NCBI GenBank assembly: GCA_016218495.1
Contig: JACRDU010000094.1
Span: forward strand, 42,608-106,607
Direction: 5' to 3'
Origin: Elusimicrobiota bacterium
GTDB lineage: Bacteria > Elusimicrobiota > Elusimicrobia > UBA1565
DNA length: 64,000 nt
Shown: positions 1-62,630 of the stretch, one piece after another
Layout of the letters: every line of letters starts with the position of its first letter
Position numbering within the stretch: position 1 is the first letter of the stretch
Translations under genes and position numbers: made by a program
Notes under the pieces: generated by a model
The model's input: only the letters and a program-made list of their open reading frames with translations
Told to the model about the DNA's origin: nothing
The model's database searches: none

Positions 1-979
1 TCATCGCCGTGAAGCCGGAGCGCCCCACATAGAGCCCGCGCAGGGCCTCCCGGGCGGCGGCCATCGCCAGGACCGTGGCGAGCAGCCCGCCGGCCGCCGG
101 CCAGGCCAGGCGCTGCGGCCCCCCGGGGGAGCGGCGGGCCTCATAGAGGAAGAAGAGCAGGGAGGCCCCCAGCACGGCGGCCAGCATGAAAACGGGGTGG
201 GCGTAGAAGCGGAACTCGGGCGGCAGGGACAGGAGCCACCCCAGGCCGGCCAGCGTCTGGACCCCCGTCGTCCAGAAGGCCAGCCCCCCGCCCAGACGGC
301 CCACCCAGGACAGGTGCTCCTTGTCCAGGTCCGGACGGACCTCGAAGTAGCGCGCGTAGAGCATCAGGTAGACGCCCGTCGCCGCGAAGGCCGGGACGAT
401 GAAGTGCAGGAAGCGCGGCAGGGAGAAGTCGTGCAGCACCAGCCCGGAGGTCACCGCGGCGCCGGCCTGCGTGTACCAGCCCAGCCACTTCTCCGGCTGG
501 AGCATCTGGAAGTTGAGCGCGTGCATCGTGAACCCGGCCGTCAGGAACATCGCCAGGGAGAACACGCCCGCGGCCAGGCCGAGCCGGTCCGCCTCGGAGC
601 GCATCGTGAACACATAGGTCGAGCCGTAGCCCGCCATCATCACGAAGACGAAGGCGATGACCCAAGCCGCCGACAGCGTGTTCGATGCGTACCAGAAGGG
701 GTCGTAGATGACCTGCACGAAGAGCAGCGGGGCCACGCCTAGCAGGATGGCCGTGGACACGCAGGCCGCCGCCGACTTCCCCATGCCGCGCGACAGCGCC
801 GTCCAGCGCTCCCCGCCCTTGAGGCGCCCGAACACGGCCAAGGCCGTCGTGCCCACGCTCAGGTTGACGAAGAGGATGTGCAGGGCGAAGGTCAGGACCA
901 TCAGGGCCTGGAACACGGCCGGGTAGAACGGGACCCCCATCGGGTCCTGGAGCAAGGAGAGCATCGTGCCGGTCTGCAT
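1..979 (-). CDS. Polytopic membrane protein, probable partner subunit of the upstream bd-like oxidase (CydB-like?). The 3' end lies beyond the window.
   Basis: ATG at 979..977 is preceded by GAGGAA and lies 11 nt downstream of the stop of the 990..2309 gene. Hand translation gives MQTGTMLSLLQDPMGVPFYPAVFQALMVLTFALHILFVNLSVGTTALAVFGRLKGGERW...LLFVQVIYDPFWYASNTLSAAW, which is hydrophobic with TM-like segments. The frame runs off position 1 without a stop, so it is absent from the ORF track. Confidence 0.4.
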   Translation of the reverse strand, partial: MQTGTMLSLLQDPMGVPFYPAVFQALMVLTFALHILFVNLSVGTTALAVFGRLKGGERWTALSRGMGKSAAACVSTAILLGVAPLLFVQVIYDPFWYASNTLSAAWVIAFVFVMMAGYGSTYVFTMRSEADRLGLAAGVFSLAMFLTAGFTMHALNFQMLQPEKWLGWYTQAGAAVTSGLVLHDFSLPRFLHFIVPAFAATGVYLMLYARYFEVRPDLDKEHLSWVGRLGGGLAFWTTGVQTLAGLGWLLSLPPEFRFYAHPVFMLAAVLGASLLFFLYEARRSPGGPQRLAWPAAGGLLATVLAMAAAREALRGLYVGRSGFTAM

Positions 980-989
980 GGGTTCCTCG

Positions 990-2309
990 TTACCGTCCGT
1001 TGCGCGCCAACGCGACCAGGTAGGCGGCCAGCGCCTCCTTCTCGGCCTGGTTCCCCACGAAGGGCGGCATGTAGGGATAGCCTTCCAGCGCGTCGAGGAA
1101 GCCCGTCATCGCCGCGGGGTCGTCCATCCCCAGGCCCCGGACCAGCCTCGGCAGGGGCCGCAGGCCGCGCTCCTGCAGGGTGTGGCAGGCGCTGCATTCC
1201 AAGAGCGCCAGCATCCGCCCCGCCTCGGCGCGGTTCGAGTCGCCGAGCGTGCGCAGGCCCTCGGGGACGAAGGGCGCGGCGGCCAGGATGCCGGTCCGCG
1301 CGAAGCGCCCCGCGTCGGAGCCCACGCCCTTGGCGGGCAGGTCGGCGCCGATGATCTGGTTCGAGTACATCATCCCCGGCATCAGGTAGGGCTTGCGGAT
1401 GAGCTCGCGGGCGCGCTCCAGCGCGAAGACCGAAGCGAACAGGACGACGATGGCCCCCAGCGCGGCGGCGGTGCCGACGCGCAACGGCTTGAACGCCAGC
1501 ACGGCGAAGTACAGCCCGACGGCCAGCGCCGGGTAGAGCATCCAGCGCCCGAGCGCCGGGGTCAACAGGGCGTCGAGCACGTCGTGCAGCGCGGCAGGCA
1601 GGCTGGCGTGGTACCAGGCGAAGCAGGCCGCGCCGAGCAAGGTCCCCGCCAGACCCGTCACGCCGGCGGCCCGCACCACCTCGGCGCGCGCCCTCTCGTC
1701 TTTGAGCCGCGCGGCGACCAGCACGGCGAACGCCGCGGCCAGCGCGAACATCGCCGTCGTGCGCAGCAGCAGCTGCGGCCAGTAGGTCTGGTTGAAGAAG
1801 CCGTCGAAGAACCCGCCGGTGGCCAGCCAGCGGCCGGGCGTCAGCATGAAGGTCAGGATGCCGACGATGACGACCATGGTCGTCCAGGAGGCGGCGGCGA
1901 ACACCCAGCCGACGGTCAGATGCGTCCTGCGGTCGACCTTGTCGAAGCTGTAGGTGTAGAGGAAGATGCCGGCCACCTCGATGAGGAAGAACACCCACTC
2001 GGTGGCCCAGCCCCAGACATAATTATGGATGAGGCCCGAGATGCCGCGCGGAGCGGCGACGGTGGCCGAGAACCAGATGCCGACGCCCGACAGCGAGCCG
2101 AAGACATAGGAGAAGACCAGGAGGAACTTGGAGTACTTCTTGACGAACTCGAGCAGCTCCGGGCGCTCCTCGCGGTAGGCCTTGCCCTCCAGGTAGACGC
2201 TCAGCCACATCGCGCTGGTGGCCAGATGCGACGGGAGCATATGGAAGGTGGCGATGAGGGCGAGCACGCCTCCCGCGGTAAGATAGGGTACTTCCCAGAC
2301 TGGGTACAT
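990..2309 (-). CDS. Cytochrome bd-type quinol oxidase subunit I-like membrane protein with a fused C-terminal monohaem cytochrome c domain.
   Basis: 439 aa and multi-TM. The N-terminal region resembles the CydA core (…NYVWGWATEWVFFLIEVAGIFLYTYSF compared with CydA …EGLMAFFLESTFVGLFFFGW). The C-terminal ~100 aa carry CSACH (CxxCH) and a downstream YMPPF Met-ligand context typical of class I cytochrome c. Confidence 0.5.
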   Translation of the reverse strand: MYPVWEVPYLTAGGVLALIATFHMLPSHLATSAMWLSVYLEGKAYREERPELLEFVKKYSKFLLVFSYVFGSLSGVGIWFSATVAAPRGISGLIHNYVWGWATEWVFFLIEVAGIFLYTYSFDKVDRRTHLTVGWVFAAASWTTMVVIVGILTFMLTPGRWLATGGFFDGFFNQTYWPQLLLRTTAMFALAAAFAVLVAARLKDERARAEVVRAAGVTGLAGTLLGAACFAWYHASLPAALHDVLDALLTPALGRWMLYPALAVGLYFAVLAFKPLRVGTAAALGAIVVLFASVFALERARELIRKPYLMPGMMYSNQIIGADLPAKGVGSDAGRFARTGILAAAPFVPEGLRTLGDSNRAEAGRMLALLECSACHTLQERGLRPLPRLVRGLGMDDPAAMTGFLDALEGYPYMPPFVGNQAEKEALAAYLVALARNGR

Positions 2310-2374
2310 GCGGCCTCCGCTATTAAGGAGCGGGAACGCAACAGACCTGCCCTGGGCGTTTGCTTTAATGCCGC

Positions 2375-4108
2375 GTGCCCTCCTCCCGCGTCATCGACGC
2401 CGCCTGCCTGGCCTTCGCGGGATGGACGATGCTCGTGCATGCGGTGGGGGCCCTGGGCGGCGGCTCTTGGACCTTGGTCTGGGCCGCCGCCCTGGCCGGC
2501 GCGGGCGCGCTGGCTCGGGCGCTCCGGCGGGGAGTACCCGCCCCCGACGCGCCGGACGGCTCCGAAAGGGCCCTCTGGGCGCTGGTTGTCCTCGCCGTAG
2601 CGGTGACCATGCTGGCGCACCGCCCGGACGGCGACGATGCCGTCTACCTCAGCATCGCCTCGGGCGTGGCCGACTTCCCGGCAAGGCCCCTGCTGCGTTT
2701 CGACGCCACCTACGGCCTGCCGGGGCTGCCCATCCTGTTCGCCCCGTACCGCATCCACTCCGTCGAGGCGCTCTACGGGGCCATCTCGCTGCTCTCGGGG
2801 ATGTCCGCCATCGCCGCCGCCCACCTGGTCTGCGCGCCGCTATGGGCCTCCCTGGTCCCGCTGGCCTACGCCAGGCTGCTGGCGGGATTCGGAGGCCGCC
2901 GGACGCTCGGCGTGGCGACGGCGATGGCATTCCTCCTCATGGACGGCAACGGCCACGGCGGCTGGGGGAACACCTCGTTCGTGCGCCTCTTCCAGGGGAA
3001 GGCCCTGTTCCTGTCGGTCTTCGCCCCGCTCATCCTAGCCTACGCGCGCGCCTTCTCCGTCAATCCGACGCGGCGAAACTGGGTCCTCCTCGCCGCGGCC
3101 CTGCTCGCCTCGGTCGGGGCGTCTTCCACGGCCGTCTGGGTCGGGCCCCTCCTGGCCGGGGCCGCCCTGGCCGCCTCATGGAGGCCGGAGCGCGCGGCCA
3201 CCCGGACCGCCCTGCTGGGCCTGAGCGCCGCCGCCTACCCCGCCCTGGCCGGCCTCCTGCTGCGCGCCATGATTGGCGGCGCGATCGCCTCGCCCGCCCT
3301 CCCGCCGGGCCGGGAATCGGCGCTCCTCCAGGAGACCCTCCGCTATGTCCTCGGGGGCGCCCCGCATGCCGCCGCCTGCCTGGCCCTCAGCGCCGGCGCC
3401 GCCTTCCTCCAAAGGGAGCAGGGCGCAAGGCGCCTGGGCGCGGTGCTCGCAATCCTCCTGCTGGCCCTGTTCAACCCCTGGACCGCCCCAGCCGCGGCGC
3501 TCCACCTGACGGCCCCGAGCGCGTTCTTCCGCGTCTTCTGGCTCATCCCCTTCCCCCTCGCCGCCGGGCTGGCCGCCATGCGCGCCTGCGACCGCGCGGA
3601 ACGCCCCGGTGCCCGCGCCCTTTGCGCCGCCCTGCTGGCCGCGGCGCTCCTGAGCGGCCGCTCGACCCTGTCCGCCGCCGATTTCACGGTCCTCAAGGCG
3701 CCGGGCCTCAAGGTCCCTCAGGAATATCCCTTGGTCCTGGCGCTCAACGCCGCGGTGCCGCCGGGGTCCCTCGTGCTCGCCCCGGCCGAGGTTTCGCTGT
3801 GGATGGTCACGCAGAACCATCACCCCTATCCCCTGCTCGTGAAGTACACGTCCTACGATTCCATCAACCGCCGCCTCCCTCCCGAAGAGCTGCAGAGGAG
3901 GCGACGGCTGATGGCTCATGTGGGAGGGCCCGCCCCCGCGCCGACGACGCCCGCGGACCTAGCGCGGGGTCTGGAAGAGCTCTCCCTCTCCGGGGTCTGC
4001 CTCGACCTGCGATTGCCCTGGAACGAGGAGACGCGCCCCGTCCTGCGCAGGGCGGGGTTCCGGCCCGGCCCCCTCGTGCCGGGCTATGAAATCTGGGCTC
4101 GGCCCTGA
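2375..4108 (+). CDS. Hypothetical polytopic integral membrane protein (>=12 predicted TM; possibly GT-C/glycosyltransferase-like).
   Basis: 577-aa ORF, strongly hydrophobic with repeated Ala/Leu-rich helices. It is chosen over the Arg-rich shadow ORF 2308..4089 in another frame. Confidence 0.5.
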   Translation: MPSSRVIDAACLAFAGWTMLVHAVGALGGGSWTLVWAAALAGAGALARALRRGVPAPDAPDGSERALWALVVLAVAVTMLAHRPDGDDAVYLSIASGVADFPARPLLRFDATYGLPGLPILFAPYRIHSVEALYGAISLLSGMSAIAAAHLVCAPLWASLVPLAYARLLAGFGGRRTLGVATAMAFLLMDGNGHGGWGNTSFVRLFQGKALFLSVFAPLILAYARAFSVNPTRRNWVLLAAALLASVGASSTAVWVGPLLAGAALAASWRPERAATRTALLGLSAAAYPALAGLLLRAMIGGAIASPALPPGRESALLQETLRYVLGGAPHAAACLALSAGAAFLQREQGARRLGAVLAILLLALFNPWTAPAAALHLTAPSAFFRVFWLIPFPLAAGLAAMRACDRAERPGARALCAALLAAALLSGRSTLSAADFTVLKAPGLKVPQEYPLVLALNAAVPPGSLVLAPAEVSLWMVTQNHHPYPLLVKYTSYDSINRRLPPEELQRRRRLMAHVGGPAPAPTTPADLARGLEELSLSGVCLDLRLPWNEETRPVLRRAGFRPGPLVPGYEIWARP

Positions 4109-10867: not shown

Positions 10868-12253
10868 TCACGGGGTTAGGATGCCCGGGCCCTGTTTCAG
10901 ACGCAAGGCCTCGATCAGCTGCCGGCGCTGCGCGTCGGTGGGATGGGCCTCGAACGCCGCGCGCAGCTGCGCCTCGGCCTCCGTCCCGCGGCCTTCGGCG
11001 GCGAGGCAGCGGGCCAACCCGAGGCGGGCGTCGACGACGTCGGGGCCGTTGGAGCCGTCCGCCTCGGCCGCCGCCAGCGCGGCCTCGAAGTCGGCGCGGG
11101 CCGTCCCCAGGTCGCTGCGCACCGCGGCCAGGCGCCCGCGCAGGACCAGCCAGCGCGTGCGTTGGCCCGGCTGCCCGGCTTGGAGGAGCGGCTCGGCCTC
11201 CTGGAGGTGGCGCGCCGCCGCGTCCAGGTCCCCGCCCATCAGCGCGGCTTCGGCCTTGCCCAGGTGCGAGGTCAGCCACAGATGGCGCGACACCTCGGGC
11301 ATCGGCGCCCGCCCGGCGTCGGGGGGCGCAGGCGCCTTAGGCTCCGCCCCGGCCGAGGGCCCCCAGCGCAGGGCCGCGCTGACGCGGTGGGCGCTGCCCA
11401 GGTCGCCGAAGGAGACGAAGGCGTAGTCGAAGCGGAAGGCAGGGGCGACCCAGCCCACGCCGGCGCTCAGGCCCAGCCCGGCGTCGTTGCGCATGTCGTA
11501 GCCCAGGCGCAACGGCAGCCGACCCAGGGCCAGCGTCTCGAGGCCCACCGCCACGACGGGGTCCTCCAGGCGCTTCTTCGTCACGTCGAGCGCCAGCGTG
11601 GTCTGCTGGCCGCGCAGGCTGCGGGTATAGGCCCCGCCCAGGCGCAGCTGGGTGGGCAGCTTCTCGGAGGCGCGCTGGAACTTGACGTCCGGCCCCGCGT
11701 TGCGCAGCGCGGCGCCCAAAGCGGCCCCCGGCAGCGCCGCGGGCCGCCACAGCGCCCCGGCGTCGAAGGCCATCGTCTGAGCGGTGACCGCCTCGATGGA
11801 CTCGCGTATGTACTTCACGGCACCGCCGACGGCCCAGGTCCCGCCGAAGCGCCGGCCGTAGCCTCCCGACAGGGCCAGGTCGGAGATCCCGTAGCTGCCC
11901 AGGCCGGCGCCGGTCCGGTTGGCGATGGTCGTCTTCGGGACGTCGCCGAAGCTCAGGTAGTTGAGCTGGGCCCCCCAGCCCCGGCGCGCGGCGAACGAGG
12001 CGTATTCCTGGCTCACGCCCTCGAAGTACTGGTTGTGCATGAAGACGGCCTCGTTGCGCTCCACGAAGCCCAGCCCGCCCGGGTTGTAGAGCAGGGCGTT
12101 GGCGTCCGAGGCCAGCGCGGTGTAGGCTCCACCGAGCGACACCGGCCGCGCGTCGGCGTCGAGCGAGAGGAACTCGAAGGGGTGCGCGCCCGGCCCGGCC
12201 TGGGCGGGGAGGGCCAGCAGCAGGGCCAGCGCGCAGGCCGCGAGGCGCCTCAT
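10868..12253 (-). CDS. PorV-like (T9SS shuttle / UPF0164-FadL-like) outer-membrane beta-barrel protein with a C-terminal TPR-like helical domain.
   Basis: ATG at 12253..12251 overlaps the TGA of the giant gene (ATGA). Signal peptide MRRLAACALALLLALPAQA. PorV-family N-terminal signature …RPVSLGGAYTALASDANALLYNPGGLGFV…, then beta-strand-rich sequence ending ~res 330. A helical, Ala/Leu-rich C-terminus follows (…GDLDAAARHLQEAEPLL…ARLGLARCLAAEGRGTEAEAQL…). Confidence 0.65.
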   Translation of the reverse strand: MRRLAACALALLLALPAQAGPGAHPFEFLSLDADARPVSLGGAYTALASDANALLYNPGGLGFVERNEAVFMHNQYFEGVSQEYASFAARRGWGAQLNYLSFGDVPKTTIANRTGAGLGSYGISDLALSGGYGRRFGGTWAVGGAVKYIRESIEAVTAQTMAFDAGALWRPAALPGAALGAALRNAGPDVKFQRASEKLPTQLRLGGAYTRSLRGQQTTLALDVTKKRLEDPVVAVGLETLALGRLPLRLGYDMRNDAGLGLSAGVGWVAPAFRFDYAFVSFGDLGSAHRVSAALRWGPSAGAEPKAPAPPDAGRAPMPEVSRHLWLTSHLGKAEAALMGGDLDAAARHLQEAEPLLQAGQPGQRTRWLVLRGRLAAVRSDLGTARADFEAALAAAEADGSNGPDVVDARLGLARCLAAEGRGTEAEAQLRAAFEAHPTDAQRRQLIEALRLKQGPGILTP

Positions 12254-15200
12254 CGGATGACCCCGATCTTCACCACGACGGGCTCCGCGCCCGGGCTCTT
12301 GATGACGGCGAAGTAGCCGCCCGACGCCACGTCCTCCCCGCTGGAGTTGCGCGCGTCCCACTGCACGGTGCCGGTACCCGAATCGGTGCCGAAGGAGGCC
12401 ACCTCGCTGCCGGTCAGGGTGTAGATGGTGATGCGCACCGAGGCCGGCAGGTTGTCGAAGAGGATGCCCGACAGTGGGTCGCCGCGGCTGAAGGCCCGGC
12501 CCTCGTCGGGGTTGCCCCCGCTGGGCTTGTACGGGTTCGGATAGACGGTCACCGAGGAGAGGTTCGCGGCCACGGCGCCAATCAGCGAGAAGAAGCTGAA
12601 GTGCGGGGTATGCCCCGTCACGGTGCGCGCCGTCTCGTCCACCGACGCCGAGAACTCCTTCTTCCACTTGCCCGAAGGGGCGTCGTAGGTGACGATGCTC
12701 AGGTTGGCGGCCCGCAGGGTCGTGCCGTCCACCACGCCGTCCCCGTCGCTGTCGGGGTAGTTGAAGACCAGGGCCGCCGTCTGCCCGCCGGCCAGCAGGC
12801 TCTGCCCGCTGCCCAGGTTCACCTCGAGCGTCGCCCCGATGGAGACCACATCGGCGGCGTGGGACGGCGCGCCGGCCGGGTTGACCTGGACGGTGACCAC
12901 CGTGGTCGAGGCGCTCACCGCGCCGGCCGGGATGAGCACCTTGGTGACCACCGCGCTGCCCGACTCGGCGGCCGCTATGGTGTTCGACACGGCGTTGTTG
13001 ACGGTCTGCTCCTTCTTGACCCGCCCCCCGCCCTGGTCGGTCTCGCGCACCTCGAAGTTGACCGGGTCGACCGACACGGAGACGAGGCCGGGCGAGGGGT
13101 CGGAGTTGGAGAAGACGTCCGTGGCCACGGCGCGCAGGTCGTACTCCGCCGGCGCCAGGCCGGTCACGTCCCAGTGCACGAAGTAGGGGTGGTCGGCGTC
13201 GGGGTTCGCGTGCTGGAGGTTCGCCGCCGGTATGGCCGTCCAGGCCGCGCCGCTGGAGGCCCGGTACTGGAACAGGACCTGGCGCGTGCGCTCCGGCTCG
13301 CCGCTGACCAGCTCCGCCATCACCAGCACGCGGTTGCCGCTGATGCGCTTGCCCGAGGCCGGCACCTTGATGGCGGCGCGCACCCCGGACAGCGAGCCCA
13401 GGGCCGGCGCCGCCGTCACCGCCCCCGGCCCGGCCTCCTCGCGCCCGCAGCGGTTGAGGGCCCGCAGTCCGAACTTGTAGACGACGCCGTTGGCTAGCGC
13501 CCCGGTCGTGTACGAGGTCGCCGACGCCCCGAGCGCGGCCAGCGGCGCCGCATAGTCGACCGTCCCCGTGCCGCTGTCGTAGTAGAGCCGGTAGCCGGTC
13601 AGGCCCGGGTCCGGGGAGGAGACCCAACTCAGGCGGATGACGCTGCCCGGCAGGCTCTCCGCGCTCAGCTCGCCGGCCCCCAACGGGGTGCTGGGCAAAG
13701 TGACGAACGACACCACGGCGTCGAAGGCGGTGAAGGCGCCGCCCAAGCCGCGGTTGCGCACCCGGTAGTAGTAGGTCGAACAGCCCTGCAGGCCGGCATC
13801 GGCGTGGACGGCGGTCGTCCCGGTGAAGACCGAGGCGTAGGAGGCCGAATCGCTCGAGCGCTGCACCTCGGCGAGGGTCCCGGCGGGGTTGCCGTTGAGC
13901 CCCCAGCTCAGGGTGGCGCTGGTCGCGGAAACGGCCGCGGCCGTGCCCGCCGGCGGCAGCGCGGGGGTGTAGACCGTGGCGGCGGCGGAGAGGGCCCCCG
14001 CCCGGGTCTCGGCCACCGCCGCTACGGCGAGGCCTACGGCCGAGTTCGGGGACAGCCCCGTCTGCACGAAGGCCGGCGCCGAAGGCGCGGCCAGCAGGGC
14101 GCCCGTGGCCGGAACGCGGGCCTGGTAGCCCTCGGCCCCGGCGACGGCGGCCCAGGTCCAGGAGACCGACGACGCCCCGAGCGCCGCCCCCGAGGGAGCG
14201 CCCGGCGCGCCCGGCGCGGCCCCGCCGAAGTCCCAGTTGCGGTTCCCGCCGGAATTGACGCTGTCGCCGGACGCGGCGCGGATGGGAATCCCGCCGGAGG
14301 CGTCGGAGTCCGAGACCTGGGCGCGGGAGACCGCCGCCGTGCCGGTGACCACGAGGTACCACGGGGACCCTGCCGTCGAGCTGCGCAGGCGCAAGCGCGG
14401 CGTCAGGCCGGGGGCGCCCAGGGACAGCGCGGCCACGGTCAGCGTGCTGCCGGCCTGCACGGTGACCGAGGACTGGGACGCCGCCTCCAGCGCGTTCAGG
14501 GCCGTGAAAGGCGAGAACCTCAGGCGCTGTTCGCCGGTGCCGGTCAGGCGCAGGGTGCCGGCGGGGAACTGCGCGGGACCTCCGGGCTCCAGCCAGTCCC
14601 CGCGCACGCGGTGGGTGAAGGCGCCTCCGTCGAAAGCCCCGGTCGTTATGGTGACGCCTCCGTTCAGCTCCAGCGGACCCAGCGCGCGCAGATAGGCGAT
14701 GCCGTTGGTTCCGAAACCGACCTCCAGGTTCTTGAAGGGGTTCCCCGCCAACGGGGCCACCGAGGCCCTGTTCGGCGCGCTCATCTGCATGAAGGTGACG
14801 GTGCTGGCCTGCGCGTTGAAGTACCCGCCGGTCTGGGTCCAGGCCCCGATGCGCAGGTTTCCGGCCCCGCCCAAGGTGAAGGTGCCCGCCAGCAGCGAGA
14901 AGGAATGCGCCTCGACCGTGGCCCCGTGGACGAAGGCCGCCCCGCTGGAGTTCGTCACCTCGACATGCGGGAGCTGGGGACGGCCGGTGCCCGTGACGAC
15001 TTGATAGCTGGACCCGTAGAATTCCAGCATGTCGCCTGCGCTGTAGGCGCAGCAATACGGGCTGTCGATGCGCATGTTCCCGCCCACGCGCACGCGCCCG
15101 TTCCCCCACTGGAACCGCCCGTACCCGCTCATCAGCACGTCGCCGGTCACGGTCACCGTGGCATTGGATATCTGGAAGACCCCGGTCGTGAGCTGGACCG

Positions 15201-18200
15201 TCCCGACGACGAGGCCCGTCGTCGCGACGACGGCGGGCCCGCCATATGACCCGCTCAGGGTCAAGCTGGAAAGGCTCAGCGGCAGGTCGAAGAAGGTGAA
15301 CTTCACCAGCGGGGTGGAGAAGACGACGGAGTCGCCCGACCTGGGAACCCGGTCGCCGACCCAGTTGGCGGCCTCGGAGGCATTGATGCTCGTCCCGCCC
15401 CCGTCCCAATAGCGCGTCGCGGGACCCTCCGACGTCCATGTCGAGGCCGACGCGGCGTACTCCGTCGCCGTTCCGACGGCATTGCGCGCGCGCACGCGGG
15501 CATAGTAGGTCGCCTCGGGGGTCAGCCCCGCGAATGAAGCCGAGAAAGCGTCCGCGCTCCAGGCGCCTGCCGTCTCCGCACCGAAGCCGGCCAGCGTCGA
15601 GACCGCGGCCTGGAACTGCGTGCCGGACGGGTTGCCCCCCGAGCCCCAGGAGAAGGTCAGGGAGGACGGGGACACCATGGTGAACGCGATGCCCGTCGGG
15701 ACGGCGGCGGCGGTGTAGGTCGAGGCCGTCACGGTCCCCGTCTCGGTGCCGGCCGCGTTGCGCGCCTTGGCGGTGAAGGTGTACTGCGTGTTCGGCGAGA
15801 GCCCCGTGAACTGGCGCGCCGTGCCGGGGTCGTAGGACTCGTGCGTGGCCAGGGTCGCGCCGTTCGTCCCGCCGACGACATAGGCCCGCCCGGCGATGAC
15901 GGCCCCGGCGGCCCGGCCGCGTGCCGTGGGCAAGCCGGTGCGCAGCGTCCAGGCGTCGGCGGACGGGTCGTACTCCTGCGTCACGCCGATGGGCCCCGCC
16001 GTGGCGGACCCCCCGAAGAGGTATATTTTCCCCCCGATGGCGGCGAAGGCCGGGTAGGAGACGGCGAAAGGGGCGCCCGACACCGTCGACCAGGAATCCA
16101 GCCCGGGGTCGTAGCGCATCCCGCTCGAGAGGGTGACGCCGTCGTAACCCGCCAGGGAATAGAGCCTACCCCCCACCTCGGCCGCCGCCATGGCATGGTT
16201 GATGCCGGGCAAAGAAGCCCGGGCCGACCAGGCCCCGGCGTCCGCGTCGAAGGCGCTGACCGCGGCGATGTAGCCCGACGCGCCCAGGCCCCCCAGGCCG
16301 ACGAGGCTGCGGCCCAGCACGGCCAGCCCCATGCCGGTGCGAGAGCTGGGCAAGGGTTGGAGCGAGGTCCAGGCGTTCGCGCCGGGGTCGTAGCGCCTGT
16401 TCCCCGACAGCAGCCCACCGGAGTTCTCGCCTCCGACGGCGTAGACGGCGCCGCCCAGCGCGACGGCGGCCAGCGCGTTGGCGGCCGCCGGCAGCGGCGC
16501 CTTCGTCGTCCAGGCGTCGGTGAACGGGTCGTATTCGGTGTTGGCCGTCACCGAAGCGGTGGTCCAGCCGCCCAGCGCGTAGAGCCGTCCATTCGCCGCG
16601 GCGGCGGCCAATGCGTAGCGCGCCGCCGGCAGCGGCGCCTTCACCGTCCACGCTTCGCCGTGCCAGCCCGCGTAGACGCCGTCCTTGGCGATGTTCGTGC
16701 CCGACAGACCCGCCCCGAGGTTCGTGAAGGCCGGCGTCGGCGAATAGGCCGCGACGACCAGGGTCGTGGTGGAGATTTCATCAAAGACGATGGCGGTCGG
16801 GGCCTGAATCAGCGTGATGGTCGAGCCCAGCGCGGTGTAGGGGCCGGAGGGCACGGTGGACACGCGGGCGTAGTAGCTGGTGTTGGCCGAAAGGCCTGAG
16901 AATGCCGCCGAGAGGTTCAGGGTCGCAGACGAAGTCAGCGTCCCCGAGAAGTCGGCCGCCGTCGCTACCTGGGCGGCGTACTGGGTTCCGACGGGGAAGG
17001 ATGAGCCCCAGTTGAGCGCCAAGCCCGTGACAGAAACGCCGCTGACCGGGGCCGAAGAGAGCGACCAGGCTGTGAGCACGCCGGTCCGCGTGCTCTGGAT
17101 GGCGTCGTAATCCGTGGTCACCCCCACGGCGTTTCGCGCCCGTACGCGGGCGTAGTATGTGGCGGACGCCAGAAGGCCGGTGAAGGTCGCGGACGTGGCC
17201 CCGGCCGTCCAGTCGCCCACGGCTTCCGAGGGGAATGCGCCCATAGTCGAGACCGAAGCCTGGAACTCGGTCCCCGCCGGGTTCCCGTTGGCGCCCCACG
17301 ACAGCGTCAGCGAAGACCCGCCGACCATCGCGATGGCCGAGCCCGTCGGGACGGCGGCGGCGGTGTAGGTCGAGGCCGTCACCGTCCCCGTCTCGGTACC
17401 GGCCGCGTTGCGCGCCTTGGCGGTGAAGGTGTACTGCGTGTTCGGGGACAGTCCCGTGAACTGCCGCGCCGTGCCGGGGTCGAACTCCTCGTTCGCCGCC
17501 AGCGCGGGCCCGTTCACGCCGCCGACCACGTACGCCCGGCCGGCGATGACGGCACCGGCGGCCCGGCCCCGGGTGGTGGGAAGGCTCGTGCGCAGAGCCC
17601 AGGCGTCGGCGGACGGGTCGTACTCCTGGGTCACGCCGATGGGCCCCGCTGTGGCCGAGCCCCCGAAGAGGTATATCTTCCCTCCGATGGCGGCGAAGGC
17701 CGGGTAGGAGACCGCGAACGGGGCCGACGACACCGCCGACCAGGAATCCAAGCCGGGGTCGTAGCGCGTCCCGCTCGAGAGGGTGACGCCGTCATAGCCC
17801 GCCAGCGAATAGAGCCTACCCCCGACCTCGGCCGCCGCCATCGCATGGTTGATGCGTGCCAGCGGCCCGCGCGAGCCCCAGGAGTCCGTCGCCGGGTCGT
17901 AGGCGTCCACCGCCGTGATGTAGCCGGACCCTCCCAGCCCTCCCAAGGAGTAGATCTTCCCACCGAGCACGGCCGCGCCCACCCCGGTCCGGGCGGACGG
18001 CAGGGCTGCCGCCGAACTCCAGGAGTTCGTCTGGGGGTCGTAGCGCTGATGGACCGACAGGAGCCCGCCCGAGTCCTCCCCCCCGACGGCGAATATCTTC
18101 CCTCCCAGGCTGACGGCGCCCAGCGCGTTCGAGGCGCTTGGCATAGCGGCCTTCGCCGTCCAGGCGTTCGCCTGCGGGTCGTACTCGGCATTGGTCGAGA

Positions 18201-21200
18201 GCGCCGACACGCCCCAGCCGCCCAAGGCATAGATGCGTCCGCCCGCGGCGGCGGCCGACAGCCCGTAGCGTGCCGACGCCATCGCGGTCTTGGCCGTCCA
18301 GGCCTCCCCGTGCCAACCCGCGTAGACGCCGTCCTTGGCGATGTTCGTGCCCGAAAGGCCGGCCCCTAGGTTCGTGAAGGCGGGCGTCGGGGAGTAGGCC
18401 GCGACGACAAGGGTCGTGGTGGAGATTTCATCAAAGACGATGGCGGTCGGGGCCTGGATCAGCGTGATGGTCGAGCCCAGCGCGGTGTAGGGGCCGGAGG
18501 GCACGGTGGACACGCGGGCGTAGTAGCTAGTGTTGGCCGAAAGGCCTGAGAATGCCGCCGAGAGGTTCAGGGTCGCAGACGAAGTCAGCGTCCCCGAGAA
18601 GTCGGAGGCGGTCGAGAGCTGGGCCGTGTATGGAGTCTCGGACGGGAAGCCTGAGGCCCAGTTCACGCTCACGCTGGTGCCGAAGACGCCGGTGAACTGG
18701 CCGGAGGAGATGGTGGGGGGGTACATCCAATCGACGCGGCCCGAGGGGTCGTTCTCGAAGCCGGGGCCCGACTTGGAGCCGCGATAGTCCCGCATGGTGA
18801 TGCGCGAGCCGGCGCCCAGCAGGCTGCCGTCGATGTTGACGCTGACGGCGGCCAGGAATTCCATCGCGGTGATGGTGGCCACATGCGTGCCGCCTTGGAA
18901 TTGGACTCCGGTGGAGGCCGTCACGGTCATCGACGCGATGCTCAGAGGCCCATTGGCGGTGGCGTCGACAAGCAGTCCGACCGCCAAGGCGTTCAAGGTA
19001 GTCGAAGCCAATGTGATGCCTACGCTCCCGCCTCTGAGCTGCACGGCCCGCCCGGAGCCTCCCGTGGCGTGGAAGGCGGTCCGCTCCGCCAGGGTGCCCG
19101 TTCCCGTGAAGATGTCGAGGGCGTCCGGGCCGGCGACATAAGAGTCGCGCAGGCTGATGCCGGAGGAACCCGCCACCATGAAGGCTGGCACCGAACCCGA
19201 GCCGGTGACGGTGCTGCGGGCGATGAGGGCCCGCTGGCCGAACTCGGCATAGACCCCGTAGCCCCCCCCCAGGAGCCAGGAATCGGACACCCATGTGTCC
19301 GGCGCTGAGTAGAGGTAGAACGCCTTGGAAGTCGGGCCGGAAGCCGCCGCCGTGCTCTTTGACAGGGTGTTGGAGCTGGCCGCGAAGCCGAAGGTGACGG
19401 CGTTGCCCGCCAAGCTGTAGAGATAAGAGCGCGAGATCGTGTTCGTCGAGGCGTTGTCTAGGTAGAGCGCCGAGAATCCCGCGCTTCGGGCCGTGACGGT
19501 CGAACGGTCGATCAGGTTGCCGTTGGCGTTGGCGCCCAGGAAGGCCGCATAGCCCGTCGTGTTGATGATCATGTTCAAGACGATGCTGTTGGAGGCCGCC
19601 GTCGTCATGTACAGCGCGTAGGCCGCCGGAGCGTCGGACAGCAGCGTGCTCTGCTGGATGGTGTTGGCGTTGGCGCCGTTGCTAAGGGCCATAGCCGTGC
19701 CGCTCGACGAATAGATGTAGCAGGATGTGATGCTGTTCGAGGAAGAGGCGTCAATCGACGCTCCTCCCCCCGTGCCGTAGGCGGCCAAAGTCGAGCCCTG
19801 TACCAGGTTCCCGTCCGAGAGGTCCGTCAGGCTGAGAGCGCTGCCTATGACGCTGCGCAGCACGCTGCCAGATACCGTGTTAAACGAGGAAGACTGGGCG
19901 ACGAAGGCTGAGAGATTCCCGGCGATTACGGTGGAGTCCTCGATTCGGTTCCAGTTCGCGCCGGCGATGAGGGTGGCGGCGATGCCCGTGGCGCTGTAGA
20001 TGTAAGCCCGCGAGACGGTGCTGTGGGTCACCCCCGCCATCGCCAGGCCGTATTCCGCGGTCCCCGTGGTCGTGATGGTGCTCTCTACCACGCTATGGTA
20101 GGAGCCGCCCATGGACAATCCCCGCCCCACCGAGGAACGCAGGAAGCTGCGGGCGATGGTGGTCGAGGAGCTCCCGGCGGATATCGAGGCCGCGTAGTTT
20201 CCAATGGCGCCGGCCGTCGCCGTGCTCCGGTCCATCACGGAATTGACGGCCCCGAGCATGACGGCCACGCCCGAGGTGTTGTGAGCCGAGCTTTCAAGGA
20301 TGGTGTTGTCCGGCCCGGAGAGCCAAAGGGTGTGGTTCGCCGCGGAGGCGTTGCTGAAGGTGCTGCGATAGAGGGTGTTGTGGTGGGCGCTGGCGCCGTT
20401 GAAGTAGACCGCTCGTCCCACGCCGACCGCCACGGTCGAGAACTCGACACGGCCGTAGGACTCCATGTCGATAGCGGCCACCACGACCTGGGTGCTCGAC
20501 TCGACAAGCACCCTTGAGACCGTCACATAGCCCGATGTGACCGCTATGCCCCAGTTGACCGCCGCGCTGGGGGCGATGCGCAGGGTTTCGATGCTGACGC
20601 TCGTGGCCTTGACCTGGAACGCCGCGGTGGAGGCGGCTGGCGGGTCGACGGTGGGGGGAGAGGACAGGGCGGTGTCGCCCAGGATGCGCAGGCGGTAACC
20701 GTTGGTCGCCTTGTTGGCGACCGTAACCTGTTCTTGATAGGTGGCGCTGTCGCGGATGACGACGCAGGTCTCGGCGCTCAGCGACGCCGGGACTGCCGCC
20801 AGCGCCGCGGTGAGCGTCGTAAAGGGGGCTCCGGCCTTGGCTACGTCGAGGCTCAGGGCGCAGCCGGGCGGCGCGGGGTACGCTGTCGTCCGAGTCGAGC
20901 CCAGGACGCCGTAGGCCGTCTCGACACCCACGGAATTGCGGGCCTGGACGCGGAAATACCAGGTCGTGAGCGCGGACAGAGAGGTCATCGTCGAGACGAG
21001 GGAAGTCTGCCAGGAGCCGGTCTGCGAGGAGGCTCCGGAATTGAAGTCGGAGGCCGTCGACAGATGAACGCGGAACTCGGTGCCGCCGGGGTTGCCGTTG
21101 GCCAGCCACTGCACGGCGACCGAGGTGGCGAAGACGCCGATGAAGGCGGGGGCGGCCGTGGAGGGGACGGCGGCCCAGGTGTAGGTCGAGAAGGCGGAAC

Positions 21201-24200
21201 TCTCCCCGGTCTCGACGCCGGCCCTGTTGCGCGCCTTGGCCTTGAACGAGTACTGCGTGTTCGGCTGCAGCCCGCTGAAGTGCCGCGCCCGCGCCATGTC
21301 GAACGACCAGGCCGTGCTGGTCACCGCCACGTCGGTGCCGCCTCCGGCCCCGTAGAGCTGGCCGTTCAAGACCGCCAGCCCGAACGCCGTGCGCGCCGGG
21401 GCCAGGCTACTGTACCTGGCCCAGGCGTCGACGGCGGGGTCATACTCCTCCACCAGCCCGCTGGCCGCGACGGGGTCCCGGCCCCCGACGACGTAGATCT
21501 TGCCGCCCACGGCCGCCGAGCGCCCCGCGTAGCGGGCCGGCGACGGCAAGACCGTCGGGGAGGACCAGGAGCCCAAGCCGGCGTCGAAGGCGGCGTGCAG
21601 GGTGGAGGGGACCCCGGAGGCCGTGCTACCCGCCACCAGGTAGACCTTCCCGCCCAGCGCGGCCGCGGCGCCTATCCCCCAGGCCGTCGGCACCGCCGTC
21701 CCGGTTGCCCAGGCACCCGCCGCCGGGTCGAAGGCCTCGTTGGCGCTCATCAGGTTCGACCCGCTCCAGCCGCCCAGCACGTGGACGCGGCCGTTGAGCT
21801 CGACGGCGCCCGCATAGGAGCGCGCCGTCGGCATCGCCGTCTTGCTGCTCCAGGCGTTGGCTGCGATGTCGTAGGCGTAGTTCGTCGTCAGCACCGGCCC
21901 GCCGCTGGCCCCGCCGACGACGTAGATGGTCCCCCCGACCCGCGCGGAGGCGAAGTCGGCGCGAGTGGCGGGCATGGCGGCCAATGCGCTCCAGGCCCCC
22001 GACGAGGGGTCGTAGGCCTCGGCGGAGGAGATGTAGGTGGTGCCGTCGTGGCCACCGTAAGCGTAGAGCCGGCCGGCGTAGGCGCAGAGGCCCGAGTTGT
22101 TGCGACCGGTGCTCATCGGGGGCAGCCACGCCCAGGCGTCGGACTTCCAGCCAGCGTACGCCCCGTCGCGGGCGATGTTGACCCCGCTCTGCCCGGCGTC
22201 TGAGCGCAGCGCCCCGGCCCCGGCGGCGTGGGCCCAGGCCACCAGGCTGTGCGAGGAGACCTCGTCGAAGAAGACCGCCGTCGGCGACTCGATGAGGGTG
22301 ACCGTGGAGCCCAGGGCGGTGAAGGGCCCGGAGAGGCCGGTGGAGACGCGCGCGTAGTAGCTGGTGTTGGCGCTCAAAGCCGAAAAGGATGCGGCGAGGT
22401 TCAGGGTCGTCGACGAGGCCAGGGTCCCCGAGAAGTCGGCAGCAGTAGACAGTTGAGCGGTATATTGGGTCCCGCCGGGGAAGCCCGACGCCCAGCCCGC
22501 CGTCAGGGCGGAGGTCCCCACCGAGCTCAAGCCCACGGCGGACAACATCCCGGGCTCCGCCACGAAGACGCTGCTCTCCGTGCCCCAGCCGCTGCGCGCC
22601 AGGCCGCCGTCGATGGTCTGCAGGCGGATGTAGTAGGTCGTCCCGGAGCGGATGTTGGCGGAGGCCGTGCCCAGGTCCACGCGGAAGTAGAGCCCGTGCT
22701 TGGCCGTCGCGTCCCCCGGCCAGACCCGGTAGGCCGGGCGCGGGTACGGGGTGTAGAGCGGCGAGCCGTTGTTCCAGGACACGGCGAAGCTCCCCGGCGA
22801 GGTCACGCGCAGGCCGTCGGGGGAAAGGGTCATCGGCGCGCTGGCCATGACCAAAGCGTAGGACAGGCTGGCCGTGGCCGAGGCCCCGTCGTAGGCCCCG
22901 GCGGCCCACTTGACCGTCATCGTCCCCCCGCCGGGCGCCAGGTCCAGGGTGACCGTATCCACGGCCGGGGCGCTGGGCGGCGCGTTGTACGGGGCCGCGT
23001 CGTTAAGCAGCAGGACTTCGTCCGTGCCTTGGTCCCAGTTGGCCACCAGCGCGTCCAGGTCCCCGTCGCCGTCGTAGTCCGCCCAAGCCGCGTCGACGCT
23101 GGCGTCGCCGGTCTCGGTCAGCAGGATTTTGGCGAAGACGCCACCGTCGTTGCGCAGCAGGTACTCGCGGGAATTCGTGCCGGACCCCGCCACGAGGATG
23201 TCCGCGTCCCCGTCGGCGTCGTAGTCGCCCACGGCCACGGCATAGGACGAAGAGGTGCCGGGGATGAGGGTCTTCACGAAGGCGCCGCCCGTGTTGCGCA
23301 GCAAGGCGATGTCGTCGAACCAGCCGTTGGCGACCACGGCGTCGAGGCGTCCGTCGCCGTCGAAGTCGCCCCAGGCCACATCTGCCGAGGAGCCTGCGGT
23401 ACCAGACAGGGTTACCGGGGTCAAGGTCCCGCCGTCGTTGCGCAAGAGGACCTCGTCGCCGGAATCGTTGGCCAGGATGGCGTCGAGGTCCCCGTCGTTG
23501 TCGTAGTCGCCCCAGGCGATGGCCTTCGTGTTGCCGCCGGTGCCTTCGATGGTGACGGCGCTCAGGACCCCGCCGTCGTTGCGCAGCAGGATTTCGTCGG
23601 CATCGGCCGGCGTCGCCTGCGCCAGCAAGGCGTCCGGGTCGCCGTCGTTGTCGTAGTCGCCCCAGGCCACGGCCACGCCCGACCCCGCCGTGCCGGGGAT
23701 GGTGACGGGCGCCCAGGTCCCCGCGTCGTTGCGCAGCAGGACGGCCCCCGAGTTGTCGCTGTTGGTGGCCAGCAGGGCGTCGAGGTCCCCGTCCCCGTCG
23801 GCGTCGGCCCAGGCCACGGCCCCGGCGTTGCGGGCGGAGGAGGTGATGACGACCTGGGTCAAGGTCCCGGCGCCGTCGTTGCGCAGGATGAGGGCGTCCA
23901 TGTTGGCGCTGTTGGCCACGAAGGCGTCCAGGTCCCCGTCCTTGTCGTAGTCCCCCCAGGCGACCCCGAAAGAGATTAGGCCGCTGCCCAGTTGGGTGCG
24001 CACGGAGAACAGCGGTGTGCGCGTGGAGCCCAGGACGGTGAAGGGGCCGGCCGGGGCCGTGGCCACGCGGGCGTAGTAGGTGGCATAGAGCGCCAAGCCC
24101 GTGAAGGTCGCCGAGAGGTTGAGCGTCGCCGACGAGGCCACGGTCCCCGAGAAGTCGGAGACTGAGGAGAGCTGGGCGGTGTATTGGGTGCCAGCCGGAT

Positions 24201-51342: not shown

Positions 51343-51726
51343 CTAGCGCTCGATGAGGTAGTGGATCTCTTCCCAGAGGGCGTCCAGGTTGATCGGCTTG
51401 GACAGGTAGGCGTCGGCGCCGGTCAGGAGCCCCTCGGCCCGGTCGGCGGGCTCCGTGTACTTCGCCGAGAGCATCACGACGGGGATGCCCTTGAGCCGAG
51501 GGTCCCGCTTCATCCGGCGGCACAGCTCGATGCCGTTGCCGTCGGGGAGCTGCACGTCGAGCAGGACCAAGGCGGGCAGCCTCTCCGCCATCACCCGTAA
51601 GGCGTCGCCGGCCGACACGGCCCCCTCGACGGCCACGTCCTTCAGGGACATGGCGTCGGCCAAGGTCTCCCGGAAATGGCTGTCGTCGTCGACGAGCAGG
51701 ACCGCCGTCTTCGTCGCGGCGGTCAT
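51343..51726 (-). CDS. Stand-alone receiver (CheY-like REC) domain protein.
   Basis: Start re-derived at MTAATKTAVLLVDDD…; phospho-acceptor context ALVLLDVQLPDGNG; …PVVMLSAKYT…; ~127 aa. The ATG overlaps the stop of the M50-S8 gene (ATGA). The long 5' extension of ORF 51343..52086 is rejected. Confidence 0.75.
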   Translation of the reverse strand: MTAATKTAVLLVDDDSHFRETLADAMSLKDVAVEGAVSAGDALRVMAERLPALVLLDVQLPDGNGIELCRRMKRDPRLKGIPVVMLSAKYTEPADRAEGLLTGADAYLSKPINLDALWEEIHYLIER

Positions 51727-54700: not shown

Positions 54701-54788
54701 GCTGGGCCCAGGCGTTGGAGCCGGGGGCGAGCGCGATGAGGGAGAGGGAAATGGAGAGGGCGACGGCGGAGCGCAGTGTCTTGGTCAT
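51723..54788 (-). CDS. Multidomain protease: signal peptide, acidic tandem repeats, M50 (site-2-protease-like) intramembrane metalloprotease domain and a C-terminal S8 subtilisin-like serine protease.
   Basis: Start re-derived at MTKTLRSAVALSISLSLIALAPGSNAWAQ (AAGGAGG ~18 nt upstream). M50 motifs LILHEMGHAKAA (HExxH in TM) and FNLLPFFPLDGHH (NxxPxxxLDG). S8 triad VAVIDTGVD (Asp), DNGHGTWVTS (His), SGTSMSTPKFAG (Ser). The upstream part of ORF 51723..56135 is Arg/Gly-rich shadow and is rejected. Confidence 0.65.
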   Translation of the reverse strand: MTKTLRSAVALSISLSLIALAPGSNAWAQLGRMAAPTATGVSPVGSIGAAGAVTMVKPGALGLATPGALVSPSLGLPVVSIPRAETTAAAQAAAALPLSVPGASAYRSEFKKDKAMPDETTGTPADSPDSADGLDDLGNTPRRGGEGGPDDRSDPDYGGDRGGNDGLFSSVRKGWTGPSALGRLFDGSAARAGQVGGTFNAAKGASSSRSGLAKSKGMPDETKGNPADSPDSTDGLDDLGNTPRRGGEGGPDDRSDPDFGGERGGSSELFSMMSPSWVSRFGAAGRFVSTWAGSALLLGAGLGVGVLTHAISPAFFVMAPLYAAFVVPSLILHEMGHAKAADKLGDPTARLQGRLGWTPRDLLTHISPLMTIAVPLLTLAFTGLLFGGAVPVQVKEQNLRKPGADMAKIAFAGPAVNFALALLGAAAGIGLAAAGIGGLAAAAAHAFVLFNVMLGIFNLLPFFPLDGHHIVRHVVADWLKAPGAAAWLDRHAGLQLYGLVLTLMYGGGALMGLITGVTSALFLPLALFMSLAAAPGSPSAPAAAPMPESKLVLVQLQGTQRPLGSDIHLGLIDVTRPGGVTLFASQQGALSAELEAAGLGAQALSIYGAAPVAAYKRINTASIRVPLAAAERFEADMAARGFKVYQNEARSIVRPIEDTPGAVRPASETQWGSISMKDTLKLSAADKVHEIARARWGAPGVGFRSWLARSLLRLFGDAPAQPKVAVIDTGVDIEHPLVKPGLAGHKDVRPNGDGIDDNGHGTWVTSMVLNYAPWLKSITHYKAFTDGGATTDDVLKGLTMAANDGNIIMSNSWGDDGGDPASPDSQLVKKLAEEGHIMVFAAGNNGYAGANSIGSPAIAYYKDAKTGAYRVLSIAATDKNKTVTSFSSKGPGSAVTRRGGEWKDYPRKPEAAEQGNDTEGAWPGGKTRAISGTSMSTPKFAGTLALLAMMFGVTEKGAKLDAIVNAVMATLTNELNQSEASIGSGFNSVKAAYDKLLAEGFAPAAPGWVSRLSLWIMGGAK
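54000..54450. repeat. Two ~150-bp near-identical direct repeats (spaced ~300 bp) encoding acidic Pro/Asp/Gly-rich modules in the M50-S8 protein.
   Basis: 54005-54150 vs 54308-54450 are almost identical. The protein modules are K(A/G)MPDET(T/K)G(T/N)PADSPDS(A/T)DGLDDLGNTPRRGGEGGPDDRSDPD(Y/F)GG(D/E)RGG. Confidence 0.75.
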
Positions 54789-54929
54789 GGCCCCATTGTA
54801 GCGGCCGCCTCCTTCCTTAGTATGAGACCGAGGGCCCAGCGGGGGGGCGTTATAGGGCCCAACAGGACGTGGGACGGCGGGACCGCCCCCCGGGGCCGTT
54901 GGACCCCCCGCGAATGCTAAGCTTGCTAC

Positions 54930-62158: not shown

Positions 62159-62613
62159 TCCGCCTGAGCGTCAACGGCCGCCGCCGCGCCTACGCCGGCC
62201 CCCCCTTCGCTCGCCTGATCGACGCGCTGCGCGAGGATTGGGGCCTGACCGGGACGAAGGAAGGCTGCGGCGAAGGCGAGTGCGGGGCCTGCACCGTGCT
62301 CATCGACGGGGAGCCGGCCAACGCCTGCCTGGTCCCGATGGGCCAGCTCGACGGCGCCCGCGTGGAGACCGTGGAGGCCCTCGGGACCCCCGAGCGCCTG
62401 AACCGCCTGCAGCGGGCCTTCGCCGAGAAGGGCGGCGCCCAATGCGGCATCTGCACGCCGGGGATGCTCATGGCGGCGGAAGCCCACCGGCGCGCCAAAG
62501 GGCGCAAGGACCGCGAGGGCATCTGCCGCGCCCTGTCCGGGAACCTCTGCCGCTGCACCGGCTACAAGCACATCATCGAGTCGGTCTCCGCCGCGCTCAA
62601 GGGGAAGAAGTGA
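62155..62613 (+). CDS. (2Fe-2S)-binding small subunit of the molybdo-hydroxylase.
   Basis: The ATG overlaps the large-subunit stop (ATGA). Cys cluster I CGEGECGACTV and cluster II CGICTPG…CRCTGY. Confidence 0.85.
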   Translation: MIRLSVNGRRRAYAGPPFARLIDALREDWGLTGTKEGCGEGECGACTVLIDGEPANACLVPMGQLDGARVETVEALGTPERLNRLQRAFAEKGGAQCGICTPGMLMAAEAHRRAKGRKDREGICRALSGNLCRCTGYKHIIESVSAALKGKK

Positions 62614-62630
62614 GGGGCGACGCCGGCTCG

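Follow-up and report, generated by a model that had tools for sequence, protein, structure and literature searches.

The DNA stretch analysed here, referred to as the window, comprises 64,000 nucleotides (nt) of an Elusimicrobiota bacterium (assembly GCA_016218495.1, contig JACRDU010000094.1, positions 42,608 to 106,607 of the forward strand), and its first 2309 nt carry two consecutive genes on the minus strand, designated here as A and B, whose products are membrane proteins related to subunit I (CydA) of the cytochrome bd oxidases. Gene A occupies 990..2309 with its stop codon TAA at 990..992 and encodes a protein of 439 amino acids (aa) with eight predicted transmembrane (TM) helices, which confirmed the open reading frame (ORF) picked out in an earlier annotation made from the sequence alone (the initial annotation). 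Its membrane domain (residues 12-312; 1374..2276), delimited by an AlphaFold2 model and by alignments, is followed by a cytochrome c domain (residues 333-437; 999..1313) defined by a match to the Pfam profile Cytochrome_CBB3 and by invariant motif residues. The haem c motif CSACH (residues 372-376) and the motif YMPPF (residues 413-417) with the candidate axial ligand Met414 were located at 1182..1196 and 1059..1073, respectively, all on the minus strand. Gene B starts with an ATG at 979..977 and crosses the window start, so that its 5' part (1..979, minus strand) includes 326 of the 406 codons. Direct reading of the sequence revealed a 10 nt spacer, CGAGGAACCC, at 980..989 (minus strand) between the stop codon of A and the start codon of B, and the two genes do not overlap as had been stated. 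The spacer contains a Shine-Dalgarno-like GAGGA and thus points to co-transcription of the two genes with separate initiation of translation. The 326 residues of B within the window, which contain the peptide LLFVQVIYDPFWYASNTLSAAW cited in the initial annotation, are identical to the start of P0122, a 406 aa 'hypothetical protein HY928_09925 [Elusimicrobia bacterium]' from the same metagenome-assembled genome (MAG) at NCBI. Recovery of this complete product, with ten predicted TM helices, bore out the view of B as a co-operonic polytopic membrane partner truncated by the window.

The window has a G+C content of about 70% and contains many ORFs overlapping A and B in alternative frames. The G+C content at third codon positions amounted to 0.95 for A and 0.97 for B and was far lower (0.43-0.67) for the overlapping alternative ORFs, which are thus best regarded as high-G+C artefacts. 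This high third-position value, together with hundreds of conserved homologues for each of the two proteins, identifies A and B as real genes. The corresponding NCBI record of A, P0001 ('cytochrome C', 425 aa), begins 14 codons downstream of the 439 aa start (2268..2309, minus strand). As a ribosome-binding GGAGG is present at 2318..2314, 5 nt 5' of the ATG of A, and as the N-terminus MYPVWEVP is nearly invariant in the alignment of its homologues, the 439 aa start is preferred and the start codon of P0001 is likely a mis-call. A search around the A-B cassette gave neither a sigma-70-like promoter nor a terminator.

Profile searches with A alone were just sufficient to reveal its affiliation. 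The Pfam profile of CydA, PF01654 (Cyt_bd_oxida_I), matched residues 17-223 with an E-value of 2.2e-5 and 23.7 bits without reaching the gathering cut-off of 26.2, and the match covered only profile positions 7-223 of 418. Cytochrome_CBB3 (PF13442) likewise matched residues 361-431 with 24.7 bits, below its cut-off of 27. Both profiles, however, matched all 31 diverse family members examined, with best E-values of 6e-10 and 1.7e-7, respectively, and a CydA-like N-terminal part and a C-terminal monohaem cytochrome c, both proposed initially, can therefore be retained, the former narrowly for A taken by itself. NCBIfam gave nothing useful apart from a lone spurious CbiM match far under its cut-off. 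The AlphaFold2 model of A (pLDDT 80, pTM 0.78) showed eight helices (12-46, 50-84, 89-120, 127-156, 176-199, 205-236, 251-273 and 280-312), and the CydA fold with its four-helix haem-binding core is present. In local mode, hhalign of the A profile against a small CydA alignment yielded a weak but collinear match (E 2.9e-4); an alignment against the single E. coli CydA sequence was uninformative.

The profile-based alignments placed H23, E104, E111, H130 and T144 of A at the positions of E. coli CydA H19, E99, E107, H126 and S140, and all five residues are invariant in the family alignment, as are Y118 and Y120, a tyrosine pair near the glutamate pair. The two glutamates are separated by six residues in A and by seven in E. 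coli. The ligands of haem b558 were not retained in the same way. H186 of CydA aligned to L182/R183, and no conserved methionine corresponding to M393 was found in helix 7 in the family alignment. Thus, among the haem ligands to which the initial annotation had drawn attention, the equivalents of H19 and E99 were recovered and those of H186 and M393 were not. In the model, the Q-loop is absent as well, the loop between TM6 and TM7 being only about 14 residues long. C372, C375, H376 and M414 of the cytochrome c domain are invariant in the family alignment. The lysine and arginine residues of the modelled protein are concentrated in the odd-numbered loops (TM1-2, 3-4, 5-6 and 7-8), which by the positive-inside rule would place both termini in the periplasm along with the cytochrome c domain that follows TM8. 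Taken together, these features show A to be a CydA-fold protein that keeps the ligand residues of the bd oxygen site and those of the proton channel, and that has lost the quinol-oxidizing haem b558 site and the Q-loop and has instead a monohaem cytochrome c domain, placed in the periplasm by the topology. At the periplasmic end of helix 8, A further displays an invariant motif, E302-x-x-R305-K-P307-Y308, resembling E445-x-x-R448-Q-P450-W451 of CydA; this counterpart was chosen by local profile alignment (E 0.016), and the similarity may be taken as a lead only.

Neither the window protein B nor any of 31 homologues tested matched a Pfam or NCBIfam profile, including PF02322 of CydB, and all B homologues are named 'hypothetical protein' in the databases. 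In structure, B resembles CydA more closely than CydB. Alignment of the A profile with that of B extends over 259 columns (hhalign E 1.7e-4) with H23 of A opposite H34 of B, and the first eight of the ten helices in the B model align with those of A, the two extra helices (334-363 and 372-403) standing in place of the cytochrome c domain. In shorter B relatives (about 360 aa), the match is confined to profile positions 12-360. No CxxCH motif was found in B, and no glutamate was present in the TM3 segment of any of the 31 sequences, which means that the E99/E107 pair is lacking. B is thus a CydA-fold paralogue without the glutamate pair. The motif E311-x-x-R314-x-x-Y317 of B matches the E302 motif of A (E 1.5e-4 for the A-to-B segment alignment). 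H34, Q89, H153, H183, R189 and H192 are invariant in the clade of B; M306, R310, E311 and R314 lie past the window edge and are numbered according to P0122.

A full HMMER scan with the profile of B, covering 1.84 billion representatives, gave 1411 clusters with an E-value of at most 1e-3, of which 767 had one of at most 1e-10. Among 116 near-full-length sequences (115 representatives at 50% identity and P0122), His34 was conserved in 116, Gln89, Arg189 and Arg310 in 113 each, Arg314 in 110, Met306 in 95 and His192 in 94. His192 aligns with H186 of E. coli CydA ('RFLHFIV' vs 'KFVHTVA', hhalign E 5e-3) and is preceded by a conserved periplasmic loop (W165, W168 and Y169). His192 and Met306 were both present in 94 sequences, both absent in 21 and discordant in one (Fisher p 3e-22, a value that ignores shared ancestry), the pattern expected of two axial ligands of one low-spin haem b. 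This co-variation suggests that in most family members B carries its own haem b through His192 and Met306, and B probably binds another haem at the universally conserved His34. Met306 is assigned to helix 8, M393 of CydA to helix 7. In the two loci checked in which B lacks the pair, A was still a monohaem OR-C1a-type subunit (see below) without a consistent compensating histidine, and the His192/Met306 haem would thus be accessory rather than essential. Two of 149 newly listed B-family representatives carry a C-terminal cytochrome c, namely P0361 (588 aa, two CxxCH motifs) and P0470 (429 aa, one), so that the haem c module can evidently sit on either subunit.

The poorly characterized bd-like family in which A had been placed by the initial annotation was named in 2021, when the bd superfamily was split into qOR, OR-C and OR-N (Murali, Gennis and Hemp; bioRxiv 10.1101/2021.01.16.426971). 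According to the preprint, OR-C1a adjoins its paralogue OR-C1b, E99/E107 are retained in subunits of the 'a' type and missing from those of the 'b' type, and cytochrome c is proposed as the electron donor of OR-C. The OR-C1a reference in its Table S6 has eight helices, H24, E105, E112, Y119, Y121, H131, S145, F183 in place of H186, and no M393; A presents H23, E104, E111, Y118, Y120, H130, T144 and L182, i.e. a constant offset of one. As these signature positions correspond throughout and a paralogous partner adjoins, the window pair is with little doubt an OR-C1a/OR-C1b pair, as judged from its sequences. A shares with OR-C1 the eight helices, the equivalents of H19, E99 and E107 with six residues between the glutamates, the tyrosine pair, the lack of b558 ligands and of a Q-loop, the C-terminal CxxCH and the neighbouring paralogue without the glutamate pair. 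It differs in being monohaem, the published reference being a multihaem Desulfovibrio protein, and B differs in its ten predicted helices from an OR-C1b family described with eight, a count that is part of the description and not of the definition. Table S7 of the preprint includes numerous monohaem OR-C1a proteins, their lengths being similar wherever coordinates are stated, from cultured bacteria (Hydrogenobacter thermophilus, Desulfovibrio vulgaris DP4, Thermodesulfovibrio aggregans, Sulfurospirillum, Thermocrinis, Lysinibacillus and Chitinophaga), as well as OR-C1b proteins with zero CxxCH motifs, named 'hypothetical protein', several of them at consecutive gene identifiers in the same genomes. 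Elusimicrobiota are positive in its phylum table in the column that we took as OR-C. The locus is therefore a typical additional member of a family delineated by phylogenomics in 2021 rather than a system of a new kind. The H19- and H186-like histidines and the co-varying methionine of B, and the E445/R448/P450-like motif of A, do not feature in the consulted portions of the published OR-C1 description.

Comparison with other members of the superfamily set the pair apart in several respects. In canonical bd oxidases (E. coli bd-I, 6rko; Geobacillus, 5ir6; Mycobacterium, 7d5i and 9r2g), CydA has the H186/M393 haem b558 site and the Q-loop, both of which A lacks, and unlike the A-B pair these enzymes contain no haem c, have a CydB without haem ligands and use quinol as donor. 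CydAA' of Caldivirga maquilingensis (qOR4a/qOR4b), the only pair of CydA paralogues with experimentally demonstrated O2 reduction in the sources consulted, similarly consists of two CydA-fold paralogues instead of CydA and CydB, the second without a quinol site, but it is archaeal, oxidizes quinol via a subunit I with a b558 site and has no cytochrome c domain. The OR-N enzymes of Nitrospirota and Nitrospinota, as described there, share with the window pair the lack of a quinol site, cytochrome c as proposed donor and duplicated CydA paralogues, several of which have ten helices like B; they differ by a CydA-like subunit without fused haem c, by other conserved residues and often by larger operons with petABD-like or separate cytochrome c genes. 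The quinol-interacting subunits NrfD/ActC/ActF of polysulfide reductase and alternative complex III also count among the closest known systems.

A search for homologues of A among 5.8 billion proteins retrieved 515 relatives, the best 120 of which showed 54-82% identity to A. The relatives belong to Elusimicrobiota, Nitrospirota/Thermodesulfovibrionales (including the complete genome of Dissulfurispira thermophila), Desulfobacterota, Syntrophales and Caldimicrobium. In a scan of one genome per species, at least 547 genomes contained a relative, and these also include Aquificota, Deferribacteres, the Thiomicrospira/Hydrogenovibrio/Thiomicrorhabdus group and gut Sutterellaceae. B was located directly downstream of A in 80 of 84 loci, with a gap of 5-160 nt and, in one case, of 397 nt. 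Three of the other four loci are contigs ending at A, and one (L014, 4780..9020) is without B. In this 9-kb MAG contig, A is followed by unrelated genes, one of them rich in Gly/Asp repeats, and B could either have been lost or be missing through mis-assembly.

Clustering of 853 flanking ORFs from 82 loci revealed no third universally conserved gene at the pair, the best neighbour cluster being present in nine loci; recurrent lineage-specific neighbours were checked with Pfam. Four loci of Nitrospirota/Thermodesulfobacteriota have an Rrf2 regulator gene 50-57 nt upstream of the pair, and one or two further loci have it a short way downstream. A flavodiiron protein gene follows at about 400 nt in four loci, most if not all of them from Thermodesulfobacteriota, and a peroxiredoxin and a Fur/PerR-family regulator are also among the recurring neighbours. 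In gammaproteobacterial sulfur oxidizers (Thiomicrospira, Hydrogenovibrio and Thiomicrorhabdus) and in Sutterellaceae, a flavoprotein of the flavocytochrome c sulfide dehydrogenase (FCSD) type (eight loci) and a dihaem cytochrome c (nine loci) are encoded just downstream of the pair, about 300-450 nt past B in L074, L075, L077, L080-L082 and L084 and 10-16 nt past it in L083-L085. This arrangement suggests a chain from sulfide via cytochrome c to OR-C in those genomes. A CcoI-type P-type ATPase and DsbD_2 are encoded near the pair in four Nitrospirota loci (L003 of Dissulfurispira thermophila, AP022873.1, 1..9311; L014, L016 and L019), where the cassette follows just 3' of genes for YtkA-like, DsbD_2, CcoI-type ATPase and FixS-like proteins. 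Such genes, among them one for a copper ATPase, are normally tied to the maturation of cbb3 oxidase; the oxidase encoded next to them here is predicted to be free of copper. A canonical cydAB with an Rrf2 gene is present 6-8 kb upstream of the cassette in L003, and at least cydA is present in L015.

From these data we favour, with reservations, the reading of the OR-C1 pair as a system for cytochrome c-dependent oxygen reduction, in which the donor would not be quinol. A and B would together make up a membrane enzyme that consists of two subunits, contains haems only and belongs to the OR-C1 branch of the bd superfamily. A periplasmic c-type cytochrome, soluble or membrane-tethered, would reduce the fused haem c of A, from which electrons would move to a haem pair held by H23, E104 and probably E302 of A, where O2 would be reduced to water with protons drawn from the cytoplasm via a channel formed by E104, E111, H130 and T144. 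B would be the structural counterpart of CydB and may hold additional haem. In the cell, the enzyme would serve as a cytochrome c oxidase that scavenges oxygen or works under microaerobic conditions. An oxygen-linked role is indicated in anaerobes by the flavodiiron, peroxiredoxin, Fur/PerR-family and Rrf2 neighbours, and in microaerophilic sulfur oxidizers by the flavocytochrome c sulfide dehydrogenase neighbours, which together with the dihaem cytochrome c are also in keeping with donors of the cytochrome c type.

Several observations weigh against this proposal. Literature searches on OR-C enzymes yielded neither biochemistry nor genetics nor structures, and oxygen reduction has therefore been deduced from the conserved residues; later papers up to 2026 cite the OR-C classification and provide no functional data. 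The sequence-level ties of both subunits to canonical CydA are weak, as seen in the hhalign E-values given above, and searches of Protein Data Bank chains with A and with the A and B profiles yielded no CydA match and only weak cytochrome c matches, among them CcoP, c6 and c551/552 chains, so that a comparison of folds was needed. The equivalence of E302 with E445 rests on a short motif, and the published table gives no E445 equivalent for OR-C1a (bioRxiv 10.1101/2021.01.16.426971). The His192/Met306 pair of B is absent in about 19% of the representatives, and as mentioned above no consistent H186-like histidine in A compensated for this in two loci. In the remainder of the 64-kb window, no oxygen-related, cytochrome c or other respiration genes were found. 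Finally, SMUL_0150, the OR-C1a protein of Sulfurospirillum multivorans, was about 40-fold up in anaerobic cells adapted to pyruvate fermentation (PMC6242987, Table 2), and an OR-C1a member was about 7-8-fold higher in fermentative than in respiratory growth in two species (PMC6242987). The rise of SMUL_0150 is the single expression datum found; it is anaerobic and is left unexplained by the oxygen-reductase model.

This fermentative induction speaks for a rather unlikely alternative, namely that the pair is a bd-fold haem protein with a substrate other than O2, serving the reduction or detoxification of NO or H2O2, or acting as a transmembrane electron conduit in anaerobic or fermentative growth. 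The concentration of the family among strictly anaerobic and sulfur-disproportionating bacteria (Thermodesulfovibrionales, Thermodesulfobacteriota and Elusimicrobiota) and the Rrf2 and flavodiiron neighbours are also in line with it, both of the latter families being ones that handle NO as well. On the other hand, the H19/E99/E107/H126/S140 set defines the O2 site and the proton supply in characterized bd oxidases, and oxygen-defence enzymes of anaerobes are often expressed without oxygen. Moreover, the family occurs in aerobes and microaerophiles, i.e. in Thiomicrospira and Hydrogenovibrio and, according to the published tables consulted, in Lysinibacillus, Chitinophaga and Hydrogenobacter.

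A dependence on quinol, as implied by the term 'quinol:electron-acceptor oxidoreductase' in the initial annotation, seems improbable to us. The pair would then oxidize quinol with O2 or, as a quinol:cytochrome c oxidoreductase, oxidize it at a b558-like haem in B and release the electrons through the fused haem c, which would amount to a bd-derived alternative to complex III. B indeed keeps the H186-like histidine in a similar sequence context, its His192 and Met306 co-vary, as the ligands of a low-spin haem of the His/Met type such as the quinol-facing b558 should, and the conserved tryptophan- and tyrosine-containing periplasmic loop stands ahead of this histidine. However, neither subunit has a Q-loop or a K252/E257-type region, A is without both b558 ligands, and a cytochrome c donor is predicted in the literature. 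The residues of the oxygen site and of the proton channel are invariant in A, which a module for electron transfer only would not require, the alignment of B with CydA has weak statistics, and those B proteins that lack the His/Met pair still accompanied OR-C1a-type subunits in both loci checked. We consider it similarly doubtful that the OR-C1 pair is a bd-derived anoxic redox module and not primarily an oxygen reductase. In such a module, B with its His/Met haem b and its His34 haem, and A with its own haems and the fused haem c, would provide an electron path between the quinone pool or the cytoplasmic side and periplasmic c-type cytochromes, and a previously unrecognized respiratory or fermentative electron-transfer complex of sulfur-cycling anaerobes would have been found. 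A canonical CydAB quinol oxidase with an odd annotation, as might be read from the NCBI name 'cytochrome ubiquinol oxidase subunit I' of many homologues and the weak PF01654 match, is refuted for practical purposes by the absence of H186, M393 and the Q-loop, the fused cytochrome c and the partner without a PF02322 match, and a genuine cydAB co-exists near the Dissulfurispira thermophila locus (at least cydA in L015).

If the OR-C proteins are oxygen reductases as we propose, they would represent a third kind of cytochrome c oxidase, built with haems only on a bd scaffold and without copper. Sulfide tolerance has been reported for canonical bd oxidases and, if shared by OR-C, would fit the anaerobes and sulfur-cycling bacteria that make up many of the species-level genomes with a relative. 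A cytochrome c-fed, sulfide-tolerant version could explain O2 removal or respiration in sulfidic habitats, an interpretation to which the flavocytochrome c sulfide dehydrogenase adjacency in Thiomicrospira-type bacteria also points. The present locus itself adds little beyond one further example, and the conserved histidine and the co-varying His/Met pair of B provide concrete targets for mutagenesis.

On its upstream side, A is separated by a divergent intergenic region of 65 bp (2310..2374), presumed to be the promoter region, from a plus-strand gene (2375..4108) for a polytopic DUF6077 membrane protein, the sole neighbour of the cassette in the window. The same divergent arrangement was found in the locus of the 82% orthologue (L002) but not in more distant loci; in the orthologue locus, B is followed by an RnfC-like gene and a BMC-domain gene. 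Elsewhere in the window, a giant ORF of 4360 aa (12250..25332, minus strand) contains many Kelch repeats and FG-GAP, fibronectin type III, right-handed beta-helix and purple-acid-phosphatase N-terminal domains, and its product is presumably a huge secreted or surface protein. An ORF of 1470 aa (51723..56135, minus strand) combines a Peptidase_M50 segment at about residues 894-931 with a subtilase S8 domain at the C-terminus (1171-1397); it may have been extended too far or may represent an unusual fusion. A molybdoenzyme of the xanthine dehydrogenase/CO dehydrogenase family is encoded at 59918..63479 (plus strand), the large subunit binding the molybdenum cofactor at 59918..62158 being followed by the FAD-binding subunit at 62238..63479.

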